A stretch of 52,322 bases of DNA from a virus (IMGVR_UViG_3300037277_000027:1-52322); one strand, 5' to 3'. Shown: positions 7,923 to 44,694, counted from the stretch's first letter. Notes: a model not told the origin generated them from the letters alone. Numbers and translations are program-made.

Positions 7923-7942
7923 GTTAAGAGAGGGGTGGAGGC

Positions 7943-8776: not shown

Positions 8777-8777
8777 G

Positions 8778-9299: not shown

Positions 9300-9303
9300 T
9301 AAT

Positions 9304-10083
9304 ATGGTTGATATTGCTTCAATATCTGTATCAGACCAATTTGGTTTAGACTCATTAGTAATTGATTTTACAATCAAAGATACTAGAGAAGACCTTTCGA
9401 ACTATAGATTTGACCTATACAAGTCAAATCACCAAACAGAACCATACTTTGTTATAGCAGCAGATATTACAACTTTTAATTATAGAGATTTTGATGTAAA
9501 TCTTTACAATATCTCTATTAACTTTTATTACAAAGTTAAAGTTACTGACAAAACTACAGGAGATTCAGTATTATCAGAGACATATGGAGAATACAAACAA
9601 GCTAGAGCAGATGTAAATGCTTTAGCTATTCTTGAAATACACAATATATACTTGGACAATGTCGTTGGCAATAAAATGATTCTGCTAAAGAAGAAGAGGA
9701 CAGGTCAAGTTTGCTCTTGTTTTGATGATGTAAGAAGAAGGTCAAACCCTGTATTTTGCTCAATATGCTATGGAACAAAGTATACTGGAGGATATTACTC
9801 TCCATTTACTGTCCCTGTCAACTTTCTGAACCCTCCTACAAAGGTTGAGTATTTTGCTCCAAACGATGTAGGTGAATGGGAAGGAACACCATTGCAATTA
9901 TGGACACAAAACTATCCATTGATACAAATTCAAGATATCATGGTTGATTACAATAATAATATCAGATATGTTGTAACGAATAGCCATCCAAGTTACATGA
10001 ACTTTTATTTGATTAGACAAACAGTACAGGTACAGCGACTCCCAGACTCTAATGTCGTATATCAGTATCCTATCAGTTTGTAG
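9304..10083 (+). CDS. Putative head-closure/neck protein with Cys cluster
   Basis: ATG 9304 after GGTGGTG (track extends to 9202); FN3-like N-terminus (FYYKVKV); RTGQVCSC...CSICYGTKYTGGY. Confidence 0.6.
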   Translation: MVDIASISVSDQFGLDSLVIDFTIKDTREDLSNYRFDLYKSNHQTEPYFVIAADITTFNYRDFDVNLYNISINFYYKVKVTDKTTGDSVLSETYGEYKQARADVNALAILEIHNIYLDNVVGNKMILLKKKRTGQVCSCFDDVRRRSNPVFCSICYGTKYTGGYYSPFTVPVNFLNPPTKVEYFAPNDVGEWEGTPLQLWTQNYPLIQIQDIMVDYNNNIRYVVTNSHPSYMNFYLIRQTVQVQRLPDSNVVYQYPISL

Positions 10084-20893: not shown

Positions 20894-23584
20894 ATGCTTA
20901 GACTTAAGGAAAGGTATTTAGAAGGAACACCGGGATTCGCAGTGTTCTTTGATAACATCAGAGTTGACCAATACGTTAAAAGTTTTCAAGTAAATATTTC
21001 TTCTGATGGCTCTATAGGTAATGCCTCGGTAGAAATGATTTATGTTCCAGACTTTTATAAGATTGAAACAACCGACCCAGAAACAGGAGATATTATTTCT
21101 GTCGAAATGGGAATAGAAAATATGACGAATGTAAAAATATTTGTAAGAAATATGTTTAGCCTTAAATATATCATGGTTTTTGACGGAAACATTAGGGGTA
21201 AATCACGAACAAAAAGTCCGTCAGGATATACCCTCGTATTTACTGCTAGTGACTATCTGACATGGCTCAACAGAACGATTGTACCGATAGCAATTCCTCT
21301 AGAGAGTCAATTGGCATTAGGTGATACGCTCAAATGGAAGGCTCAAGGTATAGATATCTTTAATACACCTAGTATATCAAGAGTCGCCAATGGAGTATTT
21401 AGAGGTCAAACTCTTCAGACATTTATAGGCAAAATGCAAGAAACTACATTAAAGCTAAATAAGTTCTATGCAGACACGGCAAGCGTTGCTTACTGGGATG
21501 GCGCACAGGGAAGAATAGATATTATGGGTGATATTAGTGATGAGCTCATACAAAACAAGGTTATAGACTTCGTAGTGACTTCGTCAGCTACATTCGTTAA
21601 TTCTATGTACGTCGGTATTAACGATATAGTAAAAAATCTAATGTTTGAGTTCTATCAGGACAGAGATGGAGTAATAAGAATTAAACCTCCATTCTGGAAC
21701 GAAAAGGTTCTATATGACCACGTTATTGAACCTTTACTTATAATGAACATGGCTGAAAACACAAATTGGAATAATTATATCACTAGAGTAGTTATAACTG
21801 GAGGGCTTGAAGACCAGCAAGAAGACTTTGATAATGTGCAGAAATCCATAGTTACACCTTGCGGAGCTTACGTTGGTGATGATGACCCAGCAAAAGCTCT
21901 CTGGACAGATTATCAGTCTGGAGATACAGGAACTATGACTCAGACAATTGCGACTGGCGGCAAAGGTACTTGGCTGTCTTCGCACGAAATGTTCTCTCCA
22001 TATATGCAATACAGAGGATTGAAGACTGATGGCTCTCCGAGATATCACTTTGGGCAAGACTACGCAATGCCAATAGGAACTCCAGTATACCACATAGGCG
22101 CAAAAGGCGTTGCTGCAAGAGGTAATGACCCTCAGGGATGGGGAGATTATGTTCAGGTGAGACTTGTTGAAGGGCCATTTAAAGGGTACTTCATAGTATA
22201 CGCTCACTTATCTGAAATCATTTGTTCGTCTGGAGATATAATAACTGATGGTTCATTGTTAGGTAAGTCAGGGAAGTCAGGGAATGCAAATACTCCTGAT
22301 AATAGAGACCATCTCCATCTGTCAGTATGCCTTAGTCAGGTTGGCGAACGTGGAGGAACTATAGACCCAGATGATTATTTTCAACGCTCTTTGGGCGAAG
22401 ATAATGGTTCTGTGGCCTTTAAGTCATCTGGAAGTTCTTCACTATTAATACCTAGTACAGACGAAAGAAAGTATGGCGTATCAGTATATGATACAGTCCA
22501 ACCTCTTATTAAGTTCTCAAATTCTGCTGTCATAGACCAGAATAGTCAGGGAAAAAGAGCTTTAGAGAAGTATGCTAAGTTCCTGTACAACATGACTAAT
22601 TCAATGGTTGAAACAGCCACACTTCAAACTGTAGCGATGCCTTGGATAAGGCCAGGCTTTAATGTTTGGGTAGACCCTGTTGCCGTGGACAAAGTATACT
22701 ACGTACACTCTGTTAGCCACTACGGCAGTGCAGAAGGTGGTTGTTTCTCTACTCTGAACTTATCTTTAGGTAGAGAAAGAATCAAGTTCACAAATTCTAC
22801 AGGCTTCGCATCGATGAAAAACCAAGGGGGAGAGAATTTATTCATAAGCAAGTTCAACGTACATTCCTCAGACTTCGGCAAAGTTTTAGATAGCGATGCA
22901 GACTTTGCCAAGATAAGAAAACAAATGGTTGGTTTTTATCAGAATGAAACGACTGGTATGATATCAGCAGATAAGAATTCATATTTTAAGGAACTTTATT
23001 ATATAACTAATTCAGACCCAGCTTATAAGAGTTCTTCACAAGCAACACAAACGACAACCACATCGGCACCAGCGCAAGTGACTATAAATGTTGGTGCCGA
23101 CGAATTCAATATAGATGCTTGGCCTGTATCAATGGGGCAAGGCTATGAAGGTGCTCATGTTGAAGAACTTCAAAAAGCCCTAAAGAGAATGGGGACTTAT
23201 ACGGAAGGTTATACCGATCAAGTCTTTGGACAAATAACAAAAAAAGCAGTAATAGATTTTCAAACAAAATTTTCATTAGATTCAGACGGTGTTGTTGGCA
23301 AATTTACTAAAGCTAAACTCAAAGAAGAACTTGGAAAGTTAGGAACAACAACTACAGCAACGGCATCAGGTTCGACAACATCAACAGCAACAAGTGTAAC
23401 AAAACTATCACCCTCGCTGTTTATAGCAGAAAATACTATTGAAGATATACAAACGATATTAAATAGTGCATACGAAAATGCACCAACCGTAGTTAAAGAT
23501 AGAATATCAAAAAACAAAAAAATAATAACTAATTCAGCAGAATATATAAAATTGCACTATATATCCGAGCTAACAAATAAGTGA
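20894..23584 (+). CDS. Baseplate hub protein with inserted M23 peptidase and peptidoglycan-binding domain
   Basis: Hub motifs FEFYQDRDGVIRIKPPFWN and PWIRPGFNV...YYVHSVSH; M23 HFGQD, YAHL, HLHL; PG_binding_1 VEELQKAL...FGQITKKAVIDFQ...DGVVG. Confidence 0.85.
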   Translation: MLRLKERYLEGTPGFAVFFDNIRVDQYVKSFQVNISSDGSIGNASVEMIYVPDFYKIETTDPETGDIISVEMGIENMTNVKIFVRNMFSLKYIMVFDGNIRGKSRTKSPSGYTLVFTASDYLTWLNRTIVPIAIPLESQLALGDTLKWKAQGIDIFNTPSISRVANGVFRGQTLQTFIGKMQETTLKLNKFYADTASVAYWDGAQGRIDIMGDISDELIQNKVIDFVVTSSATFVNSMYVGINDIVKNLMFEFYQDRDGVIRIKPPFWNEKVLYDHVIEPLLIMNMAENTNWNNYITRVVITGGLEDQQEDFDNVQKSIVTPCGAYVGDDDPAKALWTDYQSGDTGTMTQTIATGGKGTWLSSHEMFSPYMQYRGLKTDGSPRYHFGQDYAMPIGTPVYHIGAKGVAARGNDPQGWGDYVQVRLVEGPFKGYFIVYAHLSEIICSSGDIITDGSLLGKSGKSGNANTPDNRDHLHLSVCLSQVGERGGTIDPDDYFQRSLGEDNGSVAFKSSGSSSLLIPSTDERKYGVSVYDTVQPLIKFSNSAVIDQNSQGKRALEKYAKFLYNMTNSMVETATLQTVAMPWIRPGFNVWVDPVAVDKVYYVHSVSHYGSAEGGCFSTLNLSLGRERIKFTNSTGFASMKNQGGENLFISKFNVHSSDFGKVLDSDADFAKIRKQMVGFYQNETTGMISADKNSYFKELYYITNSDPAYKSSSQATQTTTTSAPAQVTINVGADEFNIDAWPVSMGQGYEGAHVEELQKALKRMGTYTEGYTDQVFGQITKKAVIDFQTKFSLDSDGVVGKFTKAKLKEELGKLGTTTTATASGSTTSTATSVTKLSPSLFIAENTIEDIQTILNSAYENAPTVVKDRISKNKKIITNSAEYIKLHYISELTNK

Positions 23585-30548: not shown

Positions 30549-31139
30549 ATGGCTTTTTCAGATAAAAGAGTGAAACAAATCGTTGATGACAGCGCACTAA
30601 AAGCTAGAGATATTAATGAAGAAAGAGCTCACTCAGGGATAATAGGTGAAGTTACTGATTATCTTATTTATGCTGACGGAAGAAGAGAGTTAGCTCGTCC
30701 AGTTGACCACAACTTGATAGTAAATAACTGTTCTGTGTTAATTGCGTGTCTAATGAAAGGTGAAGTAGGATATTCAGGAGCCGCATACTGGGCAGTAGGT
30801 TCGGGAAGTGATACTTGGAGTGATACAGTACCTCCGTCCCCACTCATTACAGACTCACAACTCACAGCAGAAACATATCGCAAAGCTATCGTACCAGCTA
30901 CAGACATTGTGTTCTTGGATAGCTCAAACGTTGTTTCTGCAACACCTACAAACAAGATTCAAATAACAGTGACATTCTTCGAAATAGAAGCTAATGGCCC
31001 ACTTAGAGAGTTCGCAATATTTGGTGGTCTTGCTAGTTCAACATTAAATAGTGGATTCATGATAAATCATAAAATACATCCACTTATCTACAAAACAAAT
31101 GCATTACAACTTGAAAGGATTCTGCGCATAACTTTCTAA
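30549..31139 (+). CDS. Baseplate/tail-fibre attachment protein
   Basis: HNLIVN...YWAVGSG...QLTAETYRK...EANGPLREFAIFGG...IYKTN pattern. Confidence 0.7.
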   Translation: MAFSDKRVKQIVDDSALKARDINEERAHSGIIGEVTDYLIYADGRRELARPVDHNLIVNNCSVLIACLMKGEVGYSGAAYWAVGSGSDTWSDTVPPSPLITDSQLTAETYRKAIVPATDIVFLDSSNVVSATPTNKIQITVTFFEIEANGPLREFAIFGGLASSTLNSGFMINHKIHPLIYKTNALQLERILRITF

Positions 31140-31156
31140 GAAGGGAGGATAAATAG

Positions 31157-32533
31157 ATGCCTAATTTTACGTATTACAGTAACTTTGACCCCAATGCAGC
31201 TATTGAGTCAGTAAAATATGCCTCTAATGCATTAGTTCTTGAAGTTGAACTCAATGAAGCTCAGAACATTCTTGATAATAAGATTAAAACTCTTATCAAA
31301 GATAGATTTGGAGATGGCTTCTACAAGACAGGTAGCACTCTTACTTACTCAGGCGGGAATGTTACTCTTTCTAATGACAAGGCCTTCGCTAGTGGAGATA
31401 TAGTTACAATTTCATCATTGACACTTGCTCTTGCAACGGGCGAAAGTGCTTACCTTGATGTCTGGGAACAAGAACTTAATTATACTAACACTATCAAAAA
31501 ATATGGTAACCAACAAGAAGCAAACACTATCACTAACTATATACAAGATGCTAGAACAGGTGAAGAAACAACAAGACGTACTCAGGTTCAATACAATATA
31601 GTGAAGACAACTGGAGTTTCTGGACATACCTACTTGCCTTTGTGCTCTATTGTGTCTGGTTCTCTTGTTGACAACAGAGTCATAGTTGGTAGTTTAGGGA
31701 GCGGAGGTTCTGGTTCTACCAAGAAGCTTTATAGTTCATTCACTGCAACGTTAGCAGGAACTACAAATTGCTTGATAAATCAGCCTGATTACAACCCAAC
31801 CACAGATTATTTAGATGTATTCTACCAAGGTGGAAAACAAACACCAGGAACACATTATACTTTAAATGCTAACAATATCTCCATAGATCTGGCTTTTTCA
31901 ATAGGTGTAGGGGAAGTTATCAATTTTGAAGTAGTTAAAAATATTGCTGTTAGTACTTCGTCAGGAATTGTAATATCTTCGTACCGTAATTCAGTGACGA
32001 CTTCTGGAGCTCAGAGTACAGTAACTATCGGTATTCCTCAGTTCAATCCGACAACAGACTTACTTACTGTTGCTGCAAACACAACACTCCCTCTTCAATC
32101 TGACTTCACTGTCACAGGGACGGGCTCTTCGTCAGCAATAGTTAAAGCATCTGGAACATGGGCTAGTGGTACTCAGTTCGATTTCTTAGTGATAAAGAAT
32201 GTTATTCAGTCTGCAACCGTTGATGGTTCTATACTTGTTGCAGGAACTGTTCCTGTGAGTGCTTTGAATGATGAATTACAAAGCAGACTTGAAGTTTCAA
32301 TAAGCACTTACAGGTCTGCAAAAGATTCTAATGGTAAATTCACTCAAATTGATAAAAAAAGGTCCAATGGAACTTTATTTTCAAGATCAATATTATCCGG
32401 TGGTACAAGTCCTCTGTATACATCAAGGACAGAAACTCTTTATGCTACAAATGGCTCGACAGTCACAGGGACTAAAATATATACACTCAGCTATGACTCA
32501 GACGGAGATATGATAAGCGAGGTGTTAAACTAA
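31157..32533 (+). CDS. Tail fibre (proximal) protein
   Basis: VLEVELNEAQ, AYLDVWEQE, ETTRRTQ N-terminal motifs; two repeats (YNPTTDYLDV / FNPTTDLLTV). Confidence 0.7.
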   Translation: MPNFTYYSNFDPNAAIESVKYASNALVLEVELNEAQNILDNKIKTLIKDRFGDGFYKTGSTLTYSGGNVTLSNDKAFASGDIVTISSLTLALATGESAYLDVWEQELNYTNTIKKYGNQQEANTITNYIQDARTGEETTRRTQVQYNIVKTTGVSGHTYLPLCSIVSGSLVDNRVIVGSLGSGGSGSTKKLYSSFTATLAGTTNCLINQPDYNPTTDYLDVFYQGGKQTPGTHYTLNANNISIDLAFSIGVGEVINFEVVKNIAVSTSSGIVISSYRNSVTTSGAQSTVTIGIPQFNPTTDLLTVAANTTLPLQSDFTVTGTGSSSAIVKASGTWASGTQFDFLVIKNVIQSATVDGSILVAGTVPVSALNDELQSRLEVSISTYRSAKDSNGKFTQIDKKRSNGTLFSRSILSGGTSPLYTSRTETLYATNGSTVTGTKIYTLSYDSDGDMISEVLN

Positions 32534-35500
32534 TGGGCGATAAAAATATTCTATATGAACACGGTATCGTTGGTGGTGGAATCAATTCGAGTACCGTTAG
32601 AGGGTATAAAAAGCAAATAGCCAATCTTACATCTATTGCAGATATATACGACAGAGTCCCTTCTGGAGCGCAAGCTGTTATGTATGATTTGTTTGACGGA
32701 ACAAACGACAGATCTGCTGGGCTCATAGAGAATTATAAAGGGATAGCTCAGTCGGCATATAGTTCTGGAACTTCAACGTTCACTGTTGACACTGTTACTG
32801 GCTTGGCTGTTGGCGAAGAAGTCACTGTTCAAGATGACGTAAATAAAGAAGTTAAAATTGTTCAGAGTTTTGCAGCAGGCACTACTGGAATAAATGTCGG
32901 AGGAGCAAAAACTGTTACTGCTACAGGAGCGACAGTTGCTACAAGTGGAACATTTTCTAGGACTGCAAAAACCATGACAGCAGTTGGTAATGCTCAAATA
33001 GCTACAGCTCAATCTGTTATAGGGTCTTCAAGTATATTTCTTGATGGGTCTGGGGATTACGTTACAGCTCCAGACGATAATGACTGGAATTTAGGTACTT
33101 TTGATTTTACATTAAGTGCTTATGTTAAATTCGCAGCATTGCCCTCAACGTTGACAGCTATGACTATATTTTCTCAGTATGCAGATACAAATAATTATTG
33201 GAGAACAGAAATATATAATAATGCAGGAACATATCAGATTAGCTTTGTAGCCAGATCTGGAGGTACTTTGCTAATTAACAATACTCAAAACATAACTTTG
33301 ACTACTAATACTTGGTATCATTACGAGGTTTGTAGGACAGGAACTGTTTTAAAATACTTCTTAAATGGTATTCAGCAAGGAGCAGATGTACCCTTTAACT
33401 TCACACTTCCAGATGTGGCAAGTACACTATCTATAGGCAGATACAACTCTGTTGTAGGCAATGAATATTACGTTAATGGATACTTGGATGAGATGCATAT
33501 TTCCAGAGGTATTGCTCGCCATACGTCAACGTTTACACCGTCAGTTGTGGCTACTATCCCTGATCCGTATACAGTGCTTTTGCTTCATTGCGAAGGAACT
33601 AATGGCTCAACAACTTTCACTGACGACAATACAACGTATACAGTGCCTCCTAAGTTTGGAGCTGGGATGGCTACAATTGGAGCATCGGCGCAATATCTAA
33701 GCACTCCGCACAGCACAGACTTATCTCTGACTACAGGGGACTGGACTATAGAAGGGTGGCTTTTTGGTCAAGCTTCAATAAGTAAGATTCTTGTTCACAA
33801 AGGTAGCAACGGTTCCGCAGGGACATATTCTTTCATATTGTTTATTGATAGTGGAAATCTTTTAGATTTTCAGCTTTATGATGGTGTTGAAAAATCTGTG
33901 AATATAGCAAGAGCCTCTGTATTAACAACTGGATGGAACCATGTCGCTGTTGTGCGTTCTGGCAACACAGTAACAATGTATGTTAATGGTGTTAGCGTAG
34001 GAACACCTCTCACTGGTGTAGGAACATTATCTGATAATGCGGCATGGCCTTTGTCTATAGGTGGAGCATCTTATGCTTCAATATATTCAATAAATAGTTA
34101 TTTAGATGAGTTCCGAATATCAAAAGGAATCGCAAGATACACAGCAAATTTTACACCACCATCCTTGCCAAGCACAACAGACACATATACTAAGCTTCTT
34201 TTGCACATGGATGGAACGAATGGTTCCACATCATTCCCAGACTCTAGCGAGCAAGTTGGTACAGGAACTACAGTAACGTTTACAGCGGCAACAACAAATT
34301 CTTACAAAAATAAAGCTGTGGTGTATCGTTCACTTTATAATATTTCCAATTACAAGCTCAAAATGGGAGACTGGGCAAGTCTTAGAGCTTTTGGTGGGAA
34401 GACAGTTACTGCTGTTGGAGATGCTAAAATTGCAACGACCACACCACTTAGGCTCGCCACAAAAACAGTGACACCAGTAAATGTAACAACTATTACCAGT
34501 GGCGCAGTTAGAGGGGCTAAAACATTAACACCTCATGGTAATGCTCAAGTGTCAACATCACAGTTTAAGTTAGGGACAGGATCAGCACTTCTTGACGGTA
34601 CTGGGGACTATATTTCAACACCAGACCATACAGATTTCGACTTCGGCTCTAGCGACTTTACTATAAGATGCTTTATTTATCCTGTAGCTAAAGGCTCTAT
34701 GATTGTGACTCACGGTGGTGCAGGGTATGCTTCTGCAAATCAAATAGGTTGGTACTTTCAGATAGATGTAAACTCTTTGACATTCGCAAAAATAGATACG
34801 TACAACGGAAGTCCAGTGTCCTCAACATTTTCATACACAGTTCCTCTCAGTCAGTGGACACACTTGGAAGTTGTGAGAACTGGAAACACACTGAAATTAT
34901 TTGTAGATGGAACACAACAGGGTGGAGATAAAGCTTTTACTGGCTCTATAGTGGACTCAACACAGATATTATCTATTGGTAGTGATATGGATGGCAACGG
35001 TGGATTCAATGGTTACATTGATGAATTAGAGATATCTAAAGGGATAGCAAGACATACTACAAATTTCACTCCGCCAACAACAGCATTAACATCAGATCAA
35101 TATACTGTTCTTTTAATGCACTCAGATGGTACTAATGGCTCGACTACATTTGCAGATGACGTGACTGGAGGAACTATAGGACCTAAATTTGGTACTGCAA
35201 TGGCGACATTTGATGGAACAGGTGATTACTTGTCAGTTCCAGACAGTACAGACTTCGCATTCACCAATGGCAACTTTACAATGGAAGGTTGGGTATGGCT
35301 AGGTTCCTTACCTTCAACCAGTGTCGATATGATGGTCTTTACACAAAAGACAGCATATAACTCGAACAATCAGATATCTGTATATATCAGTAATCTTGCA
35401 GGTGTCATGAACATGAGGACAATATTCACATATGATGGAGTTACTGGAATTTCTCACAACACTCCGATACCTAGCATAAATGCTAACACTTGGTATCACA

Positions 35501-36570
35501 TAGCTTCTGTGAGAAATGGCACTAGTGTTTTAAATTTCTTTAATGGTATCCTTCTTGGGACTTATAACATAGGAACTAACTCACTATTTGACAGCACAGC
35601 AACATTTAAGATTGGTGGATTATCAGACGGTGCATTCGTAGCAGACTTTTTTGGCTACATGGACGACGTGCATATATCCAAAGGAATAGCTAGATACACT
35701 GCTGACTTTACGGTGCCGACATCTCCAGCAAGTGCTGATGCTTACACAGTTCTGCTACTTCATATGGATGGAACTAATGGAGGTACGACATTTACAGATG
35801 ATGCAGGTTCTTTAACTCCTAAGTTTGGGACAGGAATGTTAGTTCTCGATGGTAATGGGGACTATTTGACAATCCCAGACTCAGCTGACTTCTCATTCGG
35901 GAGTGCAGACTGGACTATTGAGGGTTGGTTTAATTTTGCCTCGTTCGCATCGTTTGCAGACCCTTCACTATTTGGTCAGTTTGTTGACTTAAACAATAGA
36001 TTTCATATAGGTTATCACTCAGGTTCTAGTCAGATATATGTCATAGCTTATTCTGGAGGAACCGCAATTTTAGATGGGACAGCGAGTGCAACGTTAGCGC
36101 TGAATGTTTGGTATCACATAGCTGTGCAGTCACGGTCTGGAGCTATCGAAGTTTATTTGAACGGAACTAAACTTACGAACTCTGGAGACATGACCAGTGG
36201 TACTTTGCTTGATGTTGCAGCTCCTGTGGAGATAGGTAGACTTAACTATTCGTCAAACTACGGATACGTTTATGGCAGGATGGATGATTTAAGAGTTTCG
36301 AAGGGTATCGCAAGATATACGTCGAATTTTACGGCTCCATTATCACAACTAACACCAGACGACTACACTGTTTTATTGCTTCATATGGACGGAACTAACG
36401 GATCAGTATTGTTCTCGGATGATTTAGGAACAGCAATCCCTCTTCTTTCAACAGATATACGTTACTCTGTAACACCACCACTTGGAACGGCTAAGGAATT
36501 GGCTGTATGGGTAGAACACGAAACAGACACAACAGCAGCAAGTTACACTGTTAACATAGTGGAAAACTAA
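32533..36570 (+). CDS. Receptor-binding/tail fibre protein with five LamG (concanavalin A-like) domains
   Basis: Five copies of DFT/DWT...W(Y/N/T)H...Y(L/I/M)D(E/D)xxxS(K/R)GIAR(Y/H)TxxFT...LLLH. Confidence 0.85.
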   Translation: MGDKNILYEHGIVGGGINSSTVRGYKKQIANLTSIADIYDRVPSGAQAVMYDLFDGTNDRSAGLIENYKGIAQSAYSSGTSTFTVDTVTGLAVGEEVTVQDDVNKEVKIVQSFAAGTTGINVGGAKTVTATGATVATSGTFSRTAKTMTAVGNAQIATAQSVIGSSSIFLDGSGDYVTAPDDNDWNLGTFDFTLSAYVKFAALPSTLTAMTIFSQYADTNNYWRTEIYNNAGTYQISFVARSGGTLLINNTQNITLTTNTWYHYEVCRTGTVLKYFLNGIQQGADVPFNFTLPDVASTLSIGRYNSVVGNEYYVNGYLDEMHISRGIARHTSTFTPSVVATIPDPYTVLLLHCEGTNGSTTFTDDNTTYTVPPKFGAGMATIGASAQYLSTPHSTDLSLTTGDWTIEGWLFGQASISKILVHKGSNGSAGTYSFILFIDSGNLLDFQLYDGVEKSVNIARASVLTTGWNHVAVVRSGNTVTMYVNGVSVGTPLTGVGTLSDNAAWPLSIGGASYASIYSINSYLDEFRISKGIARYTANFTPPSLPSTTDTYTKLLLHMDGTNGSTSFPDSSEQVGTGTTVTFTAATTNSYKNKAVVYRSLYNISNYKLKMGDWASLRAFGGKTVTAVGDAKIATTTPLRLATKTVTPVNVTTITSGAVRGAKTLTPHGNAQVSTSQFKLGTGSALLDGTGDYISTPDHTDFDFGSSDFTIRCFIYPVAKGSMIVTHGGAGYASANQIGWYFQIDVNSLTFAKIDTYNGSPVSSTFSYTVPLSQWTHLEVVRTGNTLKLFVDGTQQGGDKAFTGSIVDSTQILSIGSDMDGNGGFNGYIDELEISKGIARHTTNFTPPTTALTSDQYTVLLMHSDGTNGSTTFADDVTGGTIGPKFGTAMATFDGTGDYLSVPDSTDFAFTNGNFTMEGWVWLGSLPSTSVDMMVFTQKTAYNSNNQISVYISNLAGVMNMRTIFTYDGVTGISHNTPIPSINANTWYHIASVRNGTSVLNFFNGILLGTYNIGTNSLFDSTATFKIGGLSDGAFVADFFGYMDDVHISKGIARYTADFTVPTSPASADAYTVLLLHMDGTNGGTTFTDDAGSLTPKFGTGMLVLDGNGDYLTIPDSADFSFGSADWTIEGWFNFASFASFADPSLFGQFVDLNNRFHIGYHSGSSQIYVIAYSGGTAILDGTASATLALNVWYHIAVQSRSGAIEVYLNGTKLTNSGDMTSGTLLDVAAPVEIGRLNYSSNYGYVYGRMDDLRVSKGIARYTSNFTAPLSQLTPDDYTVLLLHMDGTNGSVLFSDDLGTAIPLLSTDIRYSVTPPLGTAKELAVWVEHETDTTAASYTVNIVEN

Positions 36571-36586
36571 TGGAGGTGAGGAACAA

Positions 36587-39346
36587 ATGGCTTTAAGAAA
36601 TGGCATACAAGTTTTAAGTGGAAATTACACATTGCAAACTACATTAGGAGATGGCGGACGCAAGATTGTCCGCCTAAGCAATGGTTGGTTTGTGACGGCT
36701 ATCTTGGGGACTTCAAGCATACTCTACTATGTTTCCAAGGATGACGGAGCTACATGGACTCAACTTTGCTATTCCACTGCATCTTCTTTGTCAGGATGGG
36801 CATTGGCGAGTTACGGCACAACTGTTTATTGTATAATTAGTGTTGCTGCAGCAACAACTATCACTTTGAGAAAGTTTGATGCATCGACAGTATCCAATAT
36901 CGATCAGACAGCAGCGTCAACAATAGACACTGCCCAAACAGCATTTGGAAATGGATGTTCGATCGTGTCAGATTCAACAGGGATATTACATGCTTGTTGG
37001 ACAAGCAAAAATTCCAATTACCCAAACTCTTTCAACTTAAGATATTCTAAGAGCACAGATGGGGGTATTACCTGGGCAACACCTACGCAATTATATACAC
37101 TGAATACTGCTGGACAAAATGACACTAATCCATCAATAGCAGTAAGATCTAATGGCTATCCTTTTATTGCTTTTGAATATGTCATAGGTTCAACTTACTT
37201 TATAGCTGAAGAACGTTGGAATGGAACAACGTGGAACAGCAGTCCTGATGTAACCCCTTCAGGATTAGCTTATGCTCAAAGCAATGCTTGCACATGTATA
37301 ACGTCTGATGATGTTATACATGTGGTGTGGCAAGGTAAAGATGCTACTGACTCCAGTGTTTATAATATAAGATATTCAAAATCTACCGACCTAGGAGTCT
37401 CTTGGTCAACACCATTAAAACTTACTAGTGGCAATACGTATGACCAAACAGCACCAACTATCACTCGTGATAAAAATAATGTTCTTTATGTTACATGGAG
37501 TGGTAATGATTCATCCACAAAGGGTCAGATAAAGAAAATGGCATATGTCAATGGATCTTGGAGTGGAATAACAACATTTACTAACAATGCGACATATAAG
37601 ACTTATCAAGTTTCAAGTTGCATGAACTATACAGATTTTACAGATCCTATCTGCGTCTACATTGAAGATGGAGTATCAGTTAAATTTAGAGGTGGTTTCG
37701 TTGGTGCTGATGCGAGTGTTACGGCAGATACTTACATTGCAAACACTGCGTACGACACTAGCGATAATGGTCAAAGGAAGCTTGTAAAGCTCTCTAATGG
37801 TTGGCTAATTGCTATGGTTGTTGAATTGAACACAAGAATAAGATTCTACAAATCAACTGACAACGGTGTTACTTGGACATATCTATGTTTTAGAACAATA
37901 ACAACTTCAACATATTTTACATCCATAACATCTTACAATAACACTGTATATTATGCATTGACCACATCGACATCTAGTGGTGCATATATGGGTAAGTTTG
38001 ATGCAACTATAGTGTCCAATGCAGATCAAACATCAACAGAAGTGACAATGGACACCTCTCAAACTGCATTGAATGATATTTGTATAATTTCTGATGCAGT
38101 GGGAACATTATATTCTGCATGGACGAGTACTAATGCAACATATCCTAACTCTTGGAATATTAGATACTCAAAAAGTACTAATGGAGGAGCTTCGTGGGCT
38201 GCCCCAACACAAATTACAACGCTCAACACTAATAACTTTAACTACGCTTCATGTCACATGGTTCTTACTTCAGCGAACAATCCAGTCATAGTATCGTCGA
38301 CCAGAGAAGGCGCTTCAGCTTATTATGTGAGATCGTTCACTTACACAGGGTCTGTTTGGAACGCTGTTGTTACTGTAGAGTCAGCAGGTATTTACCCTCG
38401 CGGAAGAAATTCTGTAGTTACAGATACTAGTGGCATTATACACGCTGTATTCTTTGGTGCTGACTCTACAGATTCTGCAAAGAACAATGTAAGGTATAGT
38501 AAATCTACAGACAATGGAGCTACATGGTCTTCAGCATTAAAACTCACATCTGGTAATGCTTATGACCAAAATGTTCCATCTATATGCTATAACTCAGCAG
38601 GAGATCTTGCTGTAGTGTTCTCTGGAGGAGCTTCTGGATTTGCCGCAAGAAATATAAAGGTAATCAAATATTCTGGGGGGAGTTGGGGTTCTGCAGCTCA
38701 AGTAACAAATGAATGCGGGGCTTCAAACTTAACAGATCCTTCAACGATATCTTACTTTGGAAGTTTAACCGACCCAGCATTTATTTATGCTGACACTAGT
38801 GTAGGGGCCGTGAAGTATTTCAATTCTTATCTAGCAGTAACTGCGACAGTTACTATGAATAGCTTGAATTATGCAGCATTAGCTTGGACTATTTCTAATC
38901 CTGTTGGAGGAGCAATAACAGCTTGTAGACTTAAAATAAATGGAACATTGAAACAAACTTACACAACTGGACTTACAAGTCCTCTATCGTATACAATAAA
39001 TATAAGTGATCTGAATGTAGGCTCGAACACTATAACTATAGAGGCTGATGTTGTCAGTGTATTAGCTACAACAAAGAGTTTAACAGCTTCAAAAGTAGCG
39101 AATTCGTGGAGCGTAGATGAAACAACATTCAGTGTCAATGGATATCTTAGCATTGTCGGAGCTTCATCTAATGAGAGCTATATAGCTGCAACCAAAACAA
39201 ACTCAGGACTTACAGCCAATACAGGAGAAAATCAGCTCATTGCAGTTCCTGGGACTGGTGCTAAAATCACTGAAAAATTAACGCTAACAAGAAGTTCATC
39301 GAGTATAGACAAAGGCTTAACAAAAATAACAGGTGCTCTGGGTTAA
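36587..39346 (+). CDS. Tail fibre/spike protein with two BNR (Asp-box) beta-propellers
   Basis: Repeated YSKSTDxGxTW; duplicated RK(I/L)V(R/K)LSNGW start; Ig-like linker; C-terminal LTRSSSSIDKG. Confidence 0.8.
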   Translation: MALRNGIQVLSGNYTLQTTLGDGGRKIVRLSNGWFVTAILGTSSILYYVSKDDGATWTQLCYSTASSLSGWALASYGTTVYCIISVAAATTITLRKFDASTVSNIDQTAASTIDTAQTAFGNGCSIVSDSTGILHACWTSKNSNYPNSFNLRYSKSTDGGITWATPTQLYTLNTAGQNDTNPSIAVRSNGYPFIAFEYVIGSTYFIAEERWNGTTWNSSPDVTPSGLAYAQSNACTCITSDDVIHVVWQGKDATDSSVYNIRYSKSTDLGVSWSTPLKLTSGNTYDQTAPTITRDKNNVLYVTWSGNDSSTKGQIKKMAYVNGSWSGITTFTNNATYKTYQVSSCMNYTDFTDPICVYIEDGVSVKFRGGFVGADASVTADTYIANTAYDTSDNGQRKLVKLSNGWLIAMVVELNTRIRFYKSTDNGVTWTYLCFRTITTSTYFTSITSYNNTVYYALTTSTSSGAYMGKFDATIVSNADQTSTEVTMDTSQTALNDICIISDAVGTLYSAWTSTNATYPNSWNIRYSKSTNGGASWAAPTQITTLNTNNFNYASCHMVLTSANNPVIVSSTREGASAYYVRSFTYTGSVWNAVVTVESAGIYPRGRNSVVTDTSGIIHAVFFGADSTDSAKNNVRYSKSTDNGATWSSALKLTSGNAYDQNVPSICYNSAGDLAVVFSGGASGFAARNIKVIKYSGGSWGSAAQVTNECGASNLTDPSTISYFGSLTDPAFIYADTSVGAVKYFNSYLAVTATVTMNSLNYAALAWTISNPVGGAITACRLKINGTLKQTYTTGLTSPLSYTINISDLNVGSNTITIEADVVSVLATTKSLTASKVANSWSVDETTFSVNGYLSIVGASSNESYIAATKTNSGLTANTGENQLIAVPGTGAKITEKLTLTRSSSSIDKGLTKITGALG

Positions 39347-39348
39347 AC

Positions 39349-39370
39349 GGAAGAGGCTAAACCCTCTTCC
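39349..39370 (+). terminator. Hairpin between fibre genes
   Basis: GGAAGAGG-CTAAAC-CCTCTTCC; weak U-tract. Confidence 0.45.
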
Positions 39371-39397
39371 TAAAATTAAAAAGGAGGCGATCCTTGA

Positions 39398-42022
39398 ATG
39401 CCAAAGATTACTATGCAAGAGTTAGACCCTAGCGTTTCTTCACAAATAGCTGCCATAGGTCAATCGAGTGCTATGATTCTTGAGATGAATAGAGAGCTCG
39501 CAAACGTCCAAGCCATCTTAGATGTAGATAATCGTTGTTTGCCTAATACAGGTAAGTTCTACGATTTGATGGATGGTACGAATAATTATAGTAATGGGTT
39601 GCTTGATACATCAGCGACAACTTTAAGTTCAGCGCCAAGTGTCGGAGCATCTTCATTAAGCGTTGTAACGTCTTCTGTATTCACGGTAGGCGAAAAAGTC
39701 ACTGTATACGACGATGCTGGGCAGGAGGATGTGACAATTCAGACGGTTACTCCTGAAACTATTATAAATCAGGGAGCAACAAAAACCTTGACTCCGATAG
39801 GTAGTGCAGTGATATCTACAGCTCAGTCAAAAATAGGAACAGCGAGTGGACTTTTTAATGGTACTTCGAGTTCAGTGTATACTCCAAAATCCACAGATTT
39901 TGATTTTGGCACGGGAGACTTTACTATAGAAATGTATCTTTACTGCACTAGTTTGACAATACAAGGTGGTTACTCTAGAAGAATCGTCGAATATGTCGCG
40001 AGCCCATCTACTGGTGCTGTCAGTGGCGAATATCATCTTTATATTGATCAAGCGACAGGCAAGTTGGCTTTCGAATCAAACACAACTGTAGTTTTGGATA
40101 CAACTGCCTTCCCAACTAATGCCTGGACACACATCGCTATAGTGAGAAGCGGGACTACTACAAAAATGTATGTTGGAGGAACAGTAAAGGCAACAGCTAC
40201 TGATACTTATAATTATTCTAGCTCCACAGCATATATGTATCTAGGATCAGCAAATAATATAGGAGGCTTCTATAGTGGATATATTGATGAGTTAAGGATT
40301 TCTAAGGGAATTGCAAGATATACCTCAAACTTTACCCCACCCACAGTAGCATTGGTTACAGATGCATTTACGAAGCTACTTCTTCATTTTGAAGGAGCTA
40401 ATAATTCAACAGTGTTTGTAGATTCTGAAGAATTTGTTGTCTCTGGGGTAATGACATTGGTTTCACCAACAGTTAATGCTTACAAAGTTACGGGGAAGGT
40501 AGCTAGAAGTAATGTTATTATCTCTGGAGGAAAGATGAAATGCGGAAACATTACATCTGTAGGCCCTCAAGATAAAAGCGCTGGAGTTATCGTGTCAACA
40601 GGAACCCCAGTAATATCGTCTAATGCACAAAGATATTTGGTTAGGGATATTTATGGGTATCTCTATACTGTTATGGAAAAGACAGTAAGTACTTTTACCC
40701 AGATTTTTTGTTTGAAATCTACTGATAATGGAGCAACGTGGACAGATTTAGGTTTTCCACAAGTAGCATCTTACAATCAACACAATCCATCTATTGCTAC
40801 TGACTCACTAGGTAATGTTTATGTTGTATGGAATGGAATGGATTCTGTAGATACTGCTTTCTATAATATAAAATATGCAAAATATTCATCAGGAGCATGG
40901 AGTGCAATAACGAAGTTAACTAGTGGTAGCACTCTAGGACAACAACAGACTCCAGCTATAATGGCAGATTCTTTAAACAACATACATGTAACATGGACTG
41001 GTGGGGACACTATAGATCCAGGTAAATTTAATGTCAGATACATCAAATATAACGGAACTTCATGGGGAACTCCAGTGAAGATTACTAGTGGTAACTCTTA
41101 TGACCAAATCAATCCGTCTATCGCTATTGACACAACAAATAATATACACATTGTTTGGTCAGGAATGGATGCCACAGAAGCAACTTATTCTAATATAAGA
41201 TACAGTAAAAGTGCAGACAATGGGGCGACATTCTCAGCTCAGGCTAAGATTACAACTGGTATTGCTGGACAGAGTCTTACGCCTTGTATTATCGCAGACT
41301 CAACCAACGCTCTCCATGTTGCATTCTCTGGATGGGATGGTACAGATGTTGCTTACAACATCAAGTACATTAAATACAGTGGTTCTTGGGGCGCAATAAC
41401 AAAGCTCACATCAGGTGCGACGTATGCGCAGAGTGCGCCATCTATCACTGTTGACAGTAGTAACAACGTATACATTGTGTGGTACGGTACTCATGGCGCA
41501 AGTACCAGCATAAACCAAATAAGGAAAATAGTTTATGCAGGATCTTGGGGTTCAGTTATAAATGTAACTAGTGCTGCTTCGGATCAGACATTACCATCAA
41601 CGTGTGCTAACTATCAAGTCTTTACAGACCCTCTTTTAGTCTGGAAAGATAATGTCAATTCTAGCATAGATTTTAGAGGTATTTTTACAGGGAATATACT
41701 GTCTCCCCTTCTTGTCTCTAAAGCACGATATAACATAACCTCTCGCTCAGGCATTGCTACAGAACTTGCAGCGTGGGTGACGCACGAAAAAGACGCGGGA
41801 TTCAATACCTCAGCTAATGTTTCTATCGTAGATACTTTAGCCAACGAGAGTTTTGCATCAGCAACGAAAACAACATATAATATAGATAGTTCTTCTGAAG
41901 AAGATGCTTACTATGCAAGTGTTGGTACTGCACAAGAACGAATCACTTTTGAGCTTGTCTTAACAAGAAGTTCTGGAGCAATCGACAAAGGTGTTCTAAA
42001 AGTTCTTGGAGCTGTAGATTAA
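39398..42022 (+). CDS. Tail fibre protein: one LamG plus one BNR propeller
   Basis: N-terminal anchor paralogous to the 32533 ORF (YDLxDGTN...VGExVTVxDD); LamG; KSTDNGATW repeats. Confidence 0.8.
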   Translation: MPKITMQELDPSVSSQIAAIGQSSAMILEMNRELANVQAILDVDNRCLPNTGKFYDLMDGTNNYSNGLLDTSATTLSSAPSVGASSLSVVTSSVFTVGEKVTVYDDAGQEDVTIQTVTPETIINQGATKTLTPIGSAVISTAQSKIGTASGLFNGTSSSVYTPKSTDFDFGTGDFTIEMYLYCTSLTIQGGYSRRIVEYVASPSTGAVSGEYHLYIDQATGKLAFESNTTVVLDTTAFPTNAWTHIAIVRSGTTTKMYVGGTVKATATDTYNYSSSTAYMYLGSANNIGGFYSGYIDELRISKGIARYTSNFTPPTVALVTDAFTKLLLHFEGANNSTVFVDSEEFVVSGVMTLVSPTVNAYKVTGKVARSNVIISGGKMKCGNITSVGPQDKSAGVIVSTGTPVISSNAQRYLVRDIYGYLYTVMEKTVSTFTQIFCLKSTDNGATWTDLGFPQVASYNQHNPSIATDSLGNVYVVWNGMDSVDTAFYNIKYAKYSSGAWSAITKLTSGSTLGQQQTPAIMADSLNNIHVTWTGGDTIDPGKFNVRYIKYNGTSWGTPVKITSGNSYDQINPSIAIDTTNNIHIVWSGMDATEATYSNIRYSKSADNGATFSAQAKITTGIAGQSLTPCIIADSTNALHVAFSGWDGTDVAYNIKYIKYSGSWGAITKLTSGATYAQSAPSITVDSSNNVYIVWYGTHGASTSINQIRKIVYAGSWGSVINVTSAASDQTLPSTCANYQVFTDPLLVWKDNVNSSIDFRGIFTGNILSPLLVSKARYNITSRSGIATELAAWVTHEKDAGFNTSANVSIVDTLANESFASATKTTYNIDSSSEEDAYYASVGTAQERITFELVLTRSSGAIDKGVLKVLGAVD

Positions 42023-42030
42023 TAAAATGT

Positions 42031-42050
42031 GGGGTGGCAACACCCCTTTT
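42031..42050 (+). terminator. Rho-independent terminator
   Basis: GGGGTG-GCAA-CACCCC-TTTT. Confidence 0.7.
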
Positions 42051-42067
42051 GTTAAGGAGGATAAGGT

Positions 42068-42247
42068 ATGAAAATCAGAAATGAAGAAGGCATTATGACT
42101 CCTACAGAAAATCAAATTGCTAAGGATCAGGCTCTCCAACAACTCAAGCAAGATGTTCCTTCTAAAGATACAATCGCATCTTTAAGAGCCGACATGGAAG
42201 CTATGAAAATCTTCTTAGGAATAAAAGGAGGCGGTACAAATGGCTAA
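42068..42247 (+). CDS. Small coiled-coil protein (59 aa), possible fibre chaperone
   Basis: Hand translation MKIRNEEGIMTPTENQIAKDQALQQLKQDVPSKDTIASLRADMEAMKIFLGIKGGGTNG; AAGGAGG RBS; not in the track. Confidence 0.7.
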   Translation: MKIRNEEGIMTPTENQIAKDQALQQLKQDVPSKDTIASLRADMEAMKIFLGIKGGGTNG

Positions 42248-42431
42248 GGAAATACTCAATCAGCATTTAGACGATACGAACCGTCATATCCCTACTGGGG
42301 TAGGTTCAACTGGTCAGGTTTTAGCAAAAGCAGTGTCAGGATATACTTTTGTTGATTTGCCGACTACATCGCAGACAGTAGCTACAGGAGCAACAGTTTA
42401 TGCTTATAATAATATAGGAGGTGCGTTCTAA
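42240..42431 (+). CDS. Small tail-fibre-associated protein
   Basis: HLDDTNRHIP...GSTGQVLAK fibre-like motif; AGGAGG RBS. Confidence 0.6.
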   Translation: MAKEILNQHLDDTNRHIPTGVGSTGQVLAKAVSGYTFVDLPTTSQTVATGATVYAYNNIGGAF

Positions 42432-42868
42432 TGCCAGCTAATACTATTCCAATTTTTCCAGTTACACCTAAAGTTTCATGGGGCACAGTAACTACAGCAA
42501 ACACATCAAAAGATGGTACAGGAACAGTAGTTACAGTTTTCACAGCAGGGGCTAATGGTTCTAGAATTGACCAGATTAAAGTTCGTTCATTAGGAACAAA
42601 CGTTGCAACAGCGCTAAGATTTTTTATTAATAATGGAACAACAAATACAACAGCAACTAACAACTCATTAGCTCACGAAGTAACTGCACCTGCTACAACT
42701 TTGAATGAAGCTGCGGCTCTTGCAGATCTTGATGTAACTATTACTAAGAATAGCACAGAAACAGCATGTCCTATTCCTTATTTGCCAGCAGGATATAAAC
42801 TTAACGTTACTGTAGGTACTACGGTCGCTGCTGGACTTCAGATAACTGTTTCAGGTGGGGACTACTAA
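42431..42868 (+). CDS. Tail-fibre-associated beta-rich protein
   Basis: 145 aa Thr/Ala-rich; TAATG coupling; AGGAGG RBS. Confidence 0.65.
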   Translation: MPANTIPIFPVTPKVSWGTVTTANTSKDGTGTVVTVFTAGANGSRIDQIKVRSLGTNVATALRFFINNGTTNTTATNNSLAHEVTAPATTLNEAAALADLDVTITKNSTETACPIPYLPAGYKLNVTVGTTVAAGLQITVSGGDY

Positions 42869-42889
42869 TAACAAGGAGTTGATAAAGGC

Positions 42890-43816
42890 ATGGCTAGTTT
42901 CGATGTAGGATTTAAAAAAATGAATAATTCTGCCTCAGCCTTCAATTCTTTTAATGTAAAAAAGAAGAAATCTGGCTCAAATAATGCTACTTGGATATTT
43001 ACTACTCCTGGATCTGCATCATTTACTGCACCCACAACTGGCTCTTATAGAGTCGTTGTTGTTGCGGGTGGTGGCGGCGGTGGTGGCGGTAATAATTTTT
43101 CTGGTGGTGGCGGTGGTGGCAGAGGTGACATAAAGAGACAAATAGTATCTTTAAACGCCAATACTGTTTACGCTATAACTGTAGGTGCTGGCGGTGCTGG
43201 CGGAACAGGAAATAGTGGTTCTGGTGGTACTTCGGGATCTTCGGGTGGAGTCTCATCTTTTTCAACACTTATTACTTGTAATGGTGGTGGTGGTGGAGGA
43301 AAAGGCAATCCGTCTAATCCAAATGGTGGCTCTGGTGGTGGAGGTGGAGGTGGAGCCTTCTCAGGCTCTACATATGTTGGTGCTAGTGGAGCTGCTAATG
43401 GTTATGGTGCTGGGGGTGTGGGAAGTTTAGTGGGCGGATTAGGCACTACTGGATCTGCTGGAGTTAATACTACATCGTTCATGGGCATTAACACTGTAGG
43501 TTATGGATCGGGAGTCGGTGGCACCACAACAGGTAGTGGAGGCGCTGGAGGCGGAGGCTATGGTGGTGTTGGTCAAAATGCAGATAATGCTACTTATGGA
43601 GGTGGCGGCGGCGGTGTAGGTGGTGGTGGCGGTGGTTACGGAGATATATCTGGACTAAAGCCTGCGTCACCAATAAACTGCGGATCTGGTTATGGAGCTG
43701 GAGGATCAGGCATGGGAGGAACGTCAACACCTGTCGATGGCTCAGTTATTTTGGCTGGTGTGTCTGGGATTGTTATAATATATCTCAATATCACTGATGG
43801 AGGTACTTTTCCATGA
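42890..43816 (+). CDS. Glycine-rich adhesin-like protein 1
   Basis: FTTPGSASFTAP...VVVVAGGGGGG...YAITVGAGG...GIVIIY glycine-rich domain. Confidence 0.75.
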   Translation: MASFDVGFKKMNNSASAFNSFNVKKKKSGSNNATWIFTTPGSASFTAPTTGSYRVVVVAGGGGGGGGNNFSGGGGGGRGDIKRQIVSLNANTVYAITVGAGGAGGTGNSGSGGTSGSSGGVSSFSTLITCNGGGGGGKGNPSNPNGGSGGGGGGGAFSGSTYVGASGAANGYGAGGVGSLVGGLGTTGSAGVNTTSFMGINTVGYGSGVGGTTTGSGGAGGGGYGGVGQNADNATYGGGGGGVGGGGGGYGDISGLKPASPINCGSGYGAGGSGMGGTSTPVDGSVILAGVSGIVIIYLNITDGGTFP

Positions 43817-44694
43817 GTCTACAAAGTTTTAGTAGTGGTTTTTTAAAACCAAAAAAAGATGATAAAAAAGTTAATAGTTTTGGTGTTTCAAGTGGCGATA
43901 CATTTATATATGACTCTCCAGGAGCTTACACTTTTACACCTAGCATATCTGGCTCATACAATGTAATCGTTGTGGCTGGTGGTGGCGGTGGTGGCGGTGG
44001 TAATAACTACTGTGGCGGTGGCGGCGGTGGGCGAGGTGAAGTCAAACGTCAAATATTAGCTTTAAGTGCTGGGACTGGCTATTCGATAACTGTAGGATCT
44101 GGAGGCGCTGGCGGAACAAGCAATAGTGGTACTGGAGGGTCTAACGGCTCAGCAGGAGGAACATCATCGTTTGCAGCATTAATGTCATGTAATGGTGGCG
44201 GCGGTGGGATGAATTACAACGGCGTACAAACTCCAAACGGAGGCTCTGGCGGTGGCGGTGGCGGTGCTGACAGTGGTGTTAATAGTTCTGGAGGATCTGC
44301 GGGTCAGTATGGTGTTGGAGGCAATGGCGTTAGCGCTGGGCATGGGGTTGCAGGAGGAAATGGTCTTGATACTACGAATATAATAACCCTCGGCATGGCT
44401 GGGTATGGCGTGGGAACAGGTGGAGTTCCTGTCTCAGGATCAGGTTCTGGTGGTGGTGGTGGCGGTGGCTATGGTGGAGTTGGAGGGGCTAATTATAGTG
44501 ATGCTGGTGGTGGAGCTGGAGGCTATGGCAACACACAACTCACAATAGCTGGCGGCGGAGGCTTTGGGTACGGAGCAGGAAATACAGGAATGGGTGCTCA
44601 CGGTTCTTTTGAAGACGGCTCCGTAAACTATAAAGGCGCTAACGGTATCATCATTATTTACTTTAACAAAACAGATGGAGGTACATTCACATGA
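43813..44694 (+). CDS. Glycine-rich adhesin-like protein 2 (paralog)
   Basis: Same skeleton as the previous gene; ATGA overlap. Confidence 0.75.
   Translation: MSLQSFSSGFLKPKKDDKKVNSFGVSSGDTFIYDSPGAYTFTPSISGSYNVIVVAGGGGGGGGNNYCGGGGGGRGEVKRQILALSAGTGYSITVGSGGAGGTSNSGTGGSNGSAGGTSSFAALMSCNGGGGGMNYNGVQTPNGGSGGGGGGADSGVNSSGGSAGQYGVGGNGVSAGHGVAGGNGLDTTNIITLGMAGYGVGTGGVPVSGSGSGGGGGGGYGGVGGANYSDAGGGAGGYGNTQLTIAGGGGFGYGAGNTGMGAHGSFEDGSVNYKGANGIIIIYFNKTDGGTFT

Follow-up and report, generated by a model that had tools for sequence, protein, structure and literature searches.

To our knowledge, only a few model phages have revealed how accessory receptor-binding proteins are attached to the tail. In chaperone-usher pili, donor-strand complementation completes an incomplete beta-sandwich with one or more strands of another chain, producing a very stable non-covalent joint; each pilin lacks one C-terminal strand and receives one N-terminal strand, with catalysis by a chaperone and an usher. 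A putative joint of a related kind is described here in the DNA of a virus, the 52,322-nucleotide (nt) record IMGVR_UViG_3300037277_000027:1-52322 (hereafter the window, which is the whole IMG/VR record), where three large consecutive genes, named P0001, P0002 and P0003, lie downstream of the baseplate genes. Complementary and conserved parts of one C-terminal domain are encoded by the neighbouring genes P0001 and P0002, and the same cut is found in other phage proteins. We consider it rather likely that P0001 and P0002 constitute a two-gene receptor-binding unit joined by this split beta-sandwich domain, and we infer, in part from structure prediction, that the chains bind in this manner and that P0002 enters the virion by this route.

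The closest published case, taken as an analogue, is the baseplate tripod of the Lactococcus phage Tuc2009, for which a crystal structure of the BppU hairpin with domain 2 of BppA has been described (mBio 2016, PMC4742702). There, a 25-residue C-terminal extension of BppU (residues 296-321) forms a beta-hairpin that completes one sheet of the C-terminal beta-sandwich of BppA, a carbohydrate-binding accessory protein, so that both together are recognisable as a single domain of titin/immunoglobulin-like (Ig-like) type (PMC4742702). The likeness lies in a C-terminal hairpin on the anchored protein and an incomplete C-terminal sandwich on an accessory binder without an anchor, both of which are predicted at the present locus. 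The anchored P0001 ends in a short predicted hairpin (residues 1299-1333, strands b1 and b2), and the accessory P0002 starts with a propeller, has no anchor and ends in a C-terminal sandwich lacking those strands (nodes 49-124 of the family profile described below).

Several differences separate both cases. There is no sequence relation between them (the module profile gave no match at E <= 1 when searched against all PDB chain sequences), so that Tuc2009 is an analogue and not a member of the same family. The composite of Tuc2009 is titin/Ig-like, whereas here a sandwich of about 105 residues and seven strands has its nearest neighbour in a chain of phage 812. At the present locus a further clasp strand is predicted, and the phage is a contractile-tailed one, represented here by predicted models. 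Finally, an intact single-chain form exists here, both next door and in 110 outside proteins, and it is this form that makes the split visible as such. The donor-strand complementation of pili is a looser analogue than Tuc2009, as at this locus two C-terminal strands (plus one) would be donated, the first two strands are the missing ones and no chaperone is implied. Literature searches on the complementation of strands or folds in the tail fibres of phages surfaced no such case among the papers listed, which leaves its absence from print unproven.

The features of the locus are listed below in window coordinates.

32533..36570, + strand: P0001, 1345 residues, the 'plug' protein, A-type (open reading frame (ORF) list and translation).
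36427..36531, + strand: P0001 residues 1299-1333, the b1-b2 hairpin of the C-terminal beta-sandwich module (nodes 18-51 of the family hidden Markov model, HMM).
36532..36567, + strand: P0001 residues 1334-1345, TAASYTVNIVEN, a short extra 'clasp' strand, followed by a TAA stop at 36568-36570.
36573..36579, + strand: GGAGGTG ribosome-binding site, read directly, 7 nt upstream of the P0002 ATG.
36587..39346, + strand: P0002, 919 residues, the 'socket' protein, B-type (translation).
38837..39115, + strand: P0002 residues 751-843, Ig-like domain with its last strand and linker (HMM of four B-type proteins).
39074-39097, + strand: KSLTASKV of P0002, predicted partner of the P0001 clasp strand.
39116..39343, + strand: P0002 residues 844-919, module strands b3-b7, without b1 and b2 (HMM nodes 49-124).
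39398..42022, + strand: P0003, 874 residues, unsplit paralogue (translation, Pfam and HMM).
41645-42019, + strand: intact C-terminal module of P0003, residues 750-874 (HMM nodes 2-125).

P0001 consists of an N-terminal region common with P0003 (residues 12-130 align to P0003 17-125, in an alignment of 32% identity), five Laminin_G_3 (LamG) domains (280.5 bits over five stretches against Pfam PF13385, cut-off 27.6) and a short C-terminal tail. P0003 combines this N-terminal region with a single LamG, a single propeller and an intact C-terminal module, with Pfam scores of 69.2 (PF13385) and 32.6 (PF13088), both above the gathering threshold. P0002 is composed of two BNR/sialidase-like beta-propellers, an Ig-like domain and the partial C-terminal module, without any N-terminal anchor; it scored 44.7 bits against PF13088 (BNR_2, cut-off 31.4), its propeller starts at about residue 20 and both its propellers align to that of P0003. 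The same linker (ISKGIARYT...YTVLLLHxDGTNGS) follows every LamG of P0001 and the single LamG of P0003, and is seen at the DNA level as six-copy repeat families of 53 and 67 nt with 60-81% identity (33484-36422, 40283-40425).

That one fibre C-terminal domain is divided between two genes had been proposed in a first-pass annotation of this DNA. The ORFs, the quoted peptides and the two ACAACA hexamers named there (36529-36534 and 39122-39127, 2593 nt apart) were confirmed on the sequence, as was the gap-free join at Thr-Thr, in which HETDTT continued by FSVNGYLSIV aligns with HEKDAGFNTSANVSIV of P0003. The similarity to the paralogue was significant in local alignments evaluated with 500 shuffles: the last 60 residues of P0001 against the end of P0003 scored 85 (shuffles 27.1 ± 4.9, maximum 51), and the last 180 residues of P0002 against the same end scored 138 (shuffles 38.0 ± 6.6, maximum 70). 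When the end of P0003 was searched by tblastn against the whole record, exactly three places were matched, namely itself, 39068-39340 (E 7e-12) and 36436-36564 (E 6e-6).

The division was then delimited with a family HMM of 125 nodes, built from 40 members from outside the window and including no window protein. P0003 was matched over nodes 2-125 (E 1e-43), P0001 over nodes 18-51 (residues 1299-1333, E 8e-10) and P0002 over nodes 49-124 (residues 844-918, E 8e-22). Therefore, P0001 and P0002 hold complementary parts of one module: a match to the whole module (approximately nodes 18-125) was given by P0003, and by P0001 and P0002 jointly, but by neither of the latter alone. The conserved residues of the family are likewise spread over the two genes. 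In the numbering of alignment A2, R33, S65, E91 and R113 are invariant and Y34, I36, W49, E73 and G127 nearly so; all four of the former and four of the five latter are retained over the two genes (R, Y and W in P0001; S, E, E, R and G in P0002), the sole change being I to V in P0001. Pairwise alignments extend slightly beyond the proposed junction on both sides.

The module is the C-terminal beta-sandwich of propeller proteins of Bacillota phages and prophages, of which P0003 is a full member. The last 130 residues of P0003 matched 85 cluster representatives at E <= 0.001, 34 of them at E <= 1e-10, in a search of 1.84 billion proteins, and all these matches were located at the extreme C-terminus. 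Relatives of the propellers that carry names belong mostly to Bacillota, e.g. Paenibacillus and Brevibacillus. The module corresponds to no Pfam family and to no named Atlas cluster; word-index protein searches returned only P0003 itself when queried with its end, and only P0002 itself and the outside protein P0088 when queried with the end of P0002.

An AlphaFold2 model of P0003 residues 745-874 (35-row alignment) was all-beta, with a mean predicted local distance difference test score (pLDDT) of 94.7, and showed a sandwich of seven main strands. Counting P0003 residue 745 as residue 1, b1 covers 29-36, b2 43-53 and b3 58-67, followed by four more strands, and the positions of the strands in the P0001 hairpin were taken from this model. 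The cut falls in the four-residue surface loop (KDAG) between b2 and b3. Foldseek against the PDB gave no match at E <= 1e-3. The best structural neighbour was a baseplate chain of phage 812 (PDB 9eui_Q / 9euj_G, C-terminal residues 1044-1150), with VIA Z of 8.4 and 8.2, a root-mean-square deviation of 2.6 A, 102 residues aligned and 10% identity, and with E 9e-3 and a template modelling (TM) score of 0.61 by Foldseek. This chain is likewise the C-terminal sandwich of a baseplate protein from a Gram-positive myovirus, but no split has been reported for it and its Z of about 8 is barely above those of generic sandwiches, which came next (diphtheria toxin R domain, Z about 7; carbohydrate-binding modules, about 6). 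Thus, we read the module as a common sandwich fold, plausibly a glycan-binding one.

The cut seen between P0001 and P0002 recurs in other proteins. The scan set for the HMM consisted of 196 stored proteins, 191 of them from outside the window, and the module was present in 116 of these 191. It was intact in 110 of the 116, each time ending 0-5 residues before the C-terminus; the number of residues following the match is 0 in P0003, 1 in P0002 and 12 in P0001, where the match is partial. The first part only, followed by a tail of about 13 residues, was found in two of the 116, P0100 (1006 residues, nodes 1-62) and P0110 (618 residues, nodes 5-49), and the last part only in three, P0088 (nodes 49-124), P0105 (54-125) and P0114 (53-125). 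In these three, the order is propeller, Ig-like domain and partial module, as in P0002; P0105 and P0114 start directly with the propeller, and P0088 is an N-terminally truncated fragment. As judged from the sequences, the A-type is a carrier that ends after b1-b2 and one short strand. The remaining one of the 116, P0034 (90 residues, nodes 38-125; b2-b7 only), is of another kind and may reflect a cut at a second position or an incomplete gene call, and an Atlas cluster of 90 residues with 335 members corresponds to this type of ORF.

The segments next to the cut are conserved on both sides. After the hairpin, the A-type tails read SYTVNIVEN in P0001 and EYQVSISEI and EYVLNFTEV in P0100/P0110. 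The three tails are 30-31% identical, yet the P, D, R, Y, P, E and V of the hairpin are invariant, and so are Y49 and E55 of the tail in all three aligned sequences. As this Y/E pattern is common to distant A-types, the 12 residues of P0001 after the junction are a conserved feature and not debris. Among the B-types, the motif K-x-L-x-A-x-K is invariant in the four proteins and lies in the strand predicted to pair with the A-type tail.

The nature of the B-type was clarified by P0018, a 166-residue fragment with an intact module downstream of an Ig-like domain that is 65% identical to that of P0002 over 40 residues. When both were aligned globally, a block of about 26 residues containing b1-b2 was missing from P0002; therefore, the B-type is a propeller-Ig-module protein without b1-b2. 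An Ig-like domain of the P0002 type stands directly upstream of the module in many intact members. The possibility that P0002 has a b1-b2 of its own, as the overlap of the pairwise alignments suggested, was rejected, because the family profile detects nothing in that segment and the comparison with P0018 reveals the gap.

Unsplit homologues, for which the first-pass annotation had advised a search, were found in P0003, in P0018 and in the 110 outside proteins. In phage genomes, tblastn with the end of P0002 yielded one record, KY038360.1, with an intact module, and the smaller module alignment A5 matched two viral loci, both with intact modules. KY038360.1 is unannotated and labelled 'UNVERIFIED_ORG: Staphylococcus phage MRSA107', with Brevibacillus phage in its organism field; positions 7759-9576 hold a 606-residue frame with the intact module. 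P0105 matched three phage records by tblastn, through the propeller only. Megablast of 31000-43000 against phage genomes gave no match, and viral contigs searched with P0002, P0114, P0110 and the B-type alignment A1 provided no confirmed relative. In metagenome contigs, P0114 detected three distant propeller loci, none with the module, and in genome contigs alignment A1 gave one irrelevant match of 21 residues only. For P0100 and for P0114 alike, the longest contig on record has 96,834 nt, which is no more than a hint on adjacency.

The layout of the two genes was examined as a possible source of a trivial explanation. P0001 and P0002 are spaced by 16 nt, with P0002 in the +1 frame relative to P0001; a TAG at 36557-36559 closes the P0002 frame, which is open from 36560 and overlaps the final 8 nt of P0001. 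This overlap is what could favour recoding, in which a +1 frameshift near the P0001 stop would fuse both ORFs and the propellers would be an insertion in the b2-b3 loop. However, no recognisable slippery site is present in those 8 nt, the GGAGGTG in front of the P0002 ATG is a strong one, and the A-types P0100 and P0110 likewise end right after the same tail pattern, so recoding is very improbable. The terminator scan found no site between P0001 and P0002 nor directly 3' of P0002, and one after P0003. Directly 3' of the P0002 stop, at 39350-39373, there is an inverted repeat (GGAAGAGG-n6-CCTCTTCC) without a T tract, and downstream of P0003, at 42031-42046, a terminator-like hairpin with a T tract; the gap between P0001 and P0002 contains no such structure.

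An artefact, whether by chimerism or misassembly of the contig or by an error of sequencing that broke one long gene, has to be considered for a metagenome-derived record with an estimated completeness of 34%, the more so as contigs of two runs stop near 36518-36534. The runs that contain window DNA carry the label peat metagenome, and in their Logan contigs the left junction was bridged by a 281-nt contig of run X5 (36440-36720) and the right one (39122-39127) by contigs of X2 (3554 nt, 36534-39900) and X4 (951 nt, 38892-39842). Every contig piece agreed with the window to 99% or better, and X2, X4 and X5 are different from the possible source run. Near the left junction, which X5 bridges, contigs end at 36471 / 36534 in X2 and at 36518 / 36530 in X3; with a depth of 4-7 and many other breaks, the ends at 36518-36534 are no evidence for a variant. 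The different frames of P0001 and P0002, the strong ribosome-binding site, the second stop and the same partial-domain layout in unrelated database proteins also argue against an artefact, which we regard as extremely improbable.

A mechanism for the joint can be proposed from these data. P0001 would be fixed to the baseplate through the N-terminal region common with P0003 and would end in a 47-residue 'plug' made of b1, b2 and the short extra strand. P0002, encoded 16 nt downstream and provided with a ribosome-binding site of its own, would be translated independently and would end in a 'socket' formed by the Ig-like domain followed by b3-b7. After translation, the P0001 hairpin would replace the missing b1-b2 of P0002, rebuilding the sandwich, and the extra strand of P0001 would pack on the final strand of the Ig-like domain in P0002. 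In this way, P0002 with its two propellers would hang on the tip of the five-LamG P0001.

A co-fold of the two C-termini, which the first-pass annotation had suggested as a check, was carried out with P0002 residues 747-919 and the last 56 residues of P0001, using our own alignments (three rows for the plug). The interaction prediction score from aligned errors (ipSAE) was 0.69 (runs 0.68, 0.70 and 0.69), compared to 0.00 for the best of three controls. Of 157 solved complexes, 116 attained the mark for this score, as did 2 of 215 mismatched pairs; given the use of our own alignments, these counts are approximate. Contacts agreed by at least 87% between runs, and the partner pLDDT was at least 69. 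In the models, b2 of P0001 (VWVE) lies against b5 of P0002 (ENQL), the interface includes b3 of P0002, its last strand and residues 830-848, and the lowest expected error (0.4-0.6 A) belongs to the pairing between YTVNIV of P0001 and LTASKV of P0002. In the same program, the pLDDT of P0002 was 82-92 with the P0001 tail versus 50-66 with unrelated partners. When the end of P0002 was modelled alone, mean pLDDT was 73.5, with the linker at 56-65, the last strand unformed and b3-b6 mostly at 79-95.

These values also bear on a reading without any docking role, in which the P0001 tail would be the leftover of a truncated module and the shortened module of P0002 would either be stable by itself or be closed through the linker of P0002, with P0002 reaching the virion through another contact. 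The pLDDT of 79-95 over most of b3-b6 in the partial module alone agrees with it, as does the weak similarity of KVANSWSVDE in P0002 to b2 of P0003 in pairwise alignments, and the binding is a predicted one. In contrast, the last strand is unformed in the model of P0002 alone, the family profile matches nothing in P0002 upstream of node 49, P0002 is about 26 residues short relative to P0018, the cut recurs at the same point, and the invariant core residues are kept in the 47-residue tail across three lineages that are 30-31% identical. A relic is unlikely, because a decaying remnant is not expected to keep invariant residues.

Several points weigh against docking between P0001 and P0002 as well. 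The binding comes from prediction, and as the predictor recognises the fold and can reassemble its halves, the co-fold shows compatibility and not affinity. The co-fold alignments were small, with the three rows for the plug mentioned above, and the 1:1 model may be wrong. A b3-like strand is present in both P0001 and P0002, so the pieces are not strictly non-overlapping. The adjacency of an A-type and a B-type is known from this locus alone, and halves taken from different split systems resemble one another less than they resemble intact members, so that a common descent of the split does not follow. Even so, a clip that reassembles in trans, as the first-pass annotation had suggested, is supported as the best explanation by the complementarity of the profiles, the invariant residues, the anchor-less P0002 and the predicted co-fold.

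The same annotation had interpreted the segment between the two hexamers as a foreign cassette inserted by ACAACA microhomology, which might excise as a host-range switch. These parts of its interpretation were not supported, whereas reassembly in trans was, at the level of inference and prediction. ACAACA encodes Thr-Thr and is a common hexamer, with 75 copies in the window compared to 41 ± 5 in shuffles, a third copy lying at 39068, 54 nt from the right one, so it can hardly be said to bound an insert. Flanking direct repeats of the 2.6-kb segment amount to 6 nt only, and the repeat search gave none longer. The cut recurs in distant relatives and the tail is conserved, which indicates that the arrangement is old and recurrent and counts against a recent microhomology accident. 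Regarding excision, a 36534/39128 joint was sought in the Logan contigs of four runs and none was reported (depth 2-7; contigs drop rare variants), and both junctions were bridged.

Insertion of a cassette could still be the origin of the split, and this would be compatible with docking as its function. The cassette, containing the clasp strand, the stop, the ribosome-binding site, the propellers and the Ig-like domain, would have been inserted into or exchanged between intact modules, with the conserved module halves as recombination arms; to this, the first-pass version added the ACAACA microhomology and reversible excision. A single event would account for two exactly complementary pieces, and the parts internal to the segment (Ig-like domain and tail pattern) are common to split systems. 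Sequence identities point in the same direction: b1-b2 of P0001 has 53% identity with the best intact relative versus 30-34% with the other A-types, and for the part in P0002 the values are 49% with an intact relative versus 39% and 30% with other split systems. Against this, ACAACA is not significant, the ORF list and Pfam revealed no recombinase or other gene within the 2.6 kb, and no deleted form appeared in the contigs of the four runs, though such contigs lose rare variants. Also, P0018 indicates that an Ig-like domain of the P0002 type normally has an intact module after it, so that loss of b1-b2 would be an equally good source of a B-type. We take insertion as the origin to be quite improbable. 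When intact relatives were ranked by their similarity to the P0001 half and to the P0002 half, the agreement was 0.34, a value without discriminating power next to the 0.42 ± 0.16 of real domains and the 0.19 ± 0.22 of mismatched domains.

The data fit two routes of origin: an intact module may have received one insertion in its b2-b3 loop, or two tandem genes, each with an intact module, may have lost complementary parts. Halves that are near to intact members, together with an Ig-like domain and a tail common to the splits, are what would be expected of a portable cassette or of later recombination. A wider version of the former, which we offer as a rather doubtful suggestion, is a portable plug-and-socket system, in which a segment of clasp, stop, ribosome-binding site, propeller(s) and Ig-like domain would have repeatedly entered, or been exchanged between, the intact modules of receptor-binding genes, the module halves serving both as DNA homology arms and as the protein dock.

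Outside the three genes, the window encodes structural proteins of a contractile-tailed phage, including a major head protein, a tail sheath, a baseplate wedge and a tail lysin. An ORF of 1595 residues at 13789-18576 occupies the tape-measure position without any PHROG match, and a tail protein of 896 residues at 20894-23584 has peptidase and endolysin-like domains. Two tandem glycine-rich paralogues of 308 and 293 residues (42890-43816 and 43813-44694) show long G runs after VVVAGGGG, have a G+C content of about 0.48 compared to about 0.38 around them, and match weakly phrog_863, 'tail fiber assembly'.

The joint proposed for P0001 and P0002 is readable from sequence alone, as the domain is intact in one gene and cut at a surface loop in its two neighbours. 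If docking is true, it would provide a simple rule for assigning carriers to the 'orphan' tail proteins of metagenomes, and the principle of hairpin completion described for Tuc2009 would reach contractile-tailed phages and another fold. The pair would also be a small natural split domain (47 + 76 residues, with an Ig-like neighbour) and thus a candidate protein-joining tag. If docking is untrue, the recurrent complementary truncations still want an explanation. Should the system prove to be portable, one recombination step would be enough for a phage to add a second receptor-binding protein to one that it already has.

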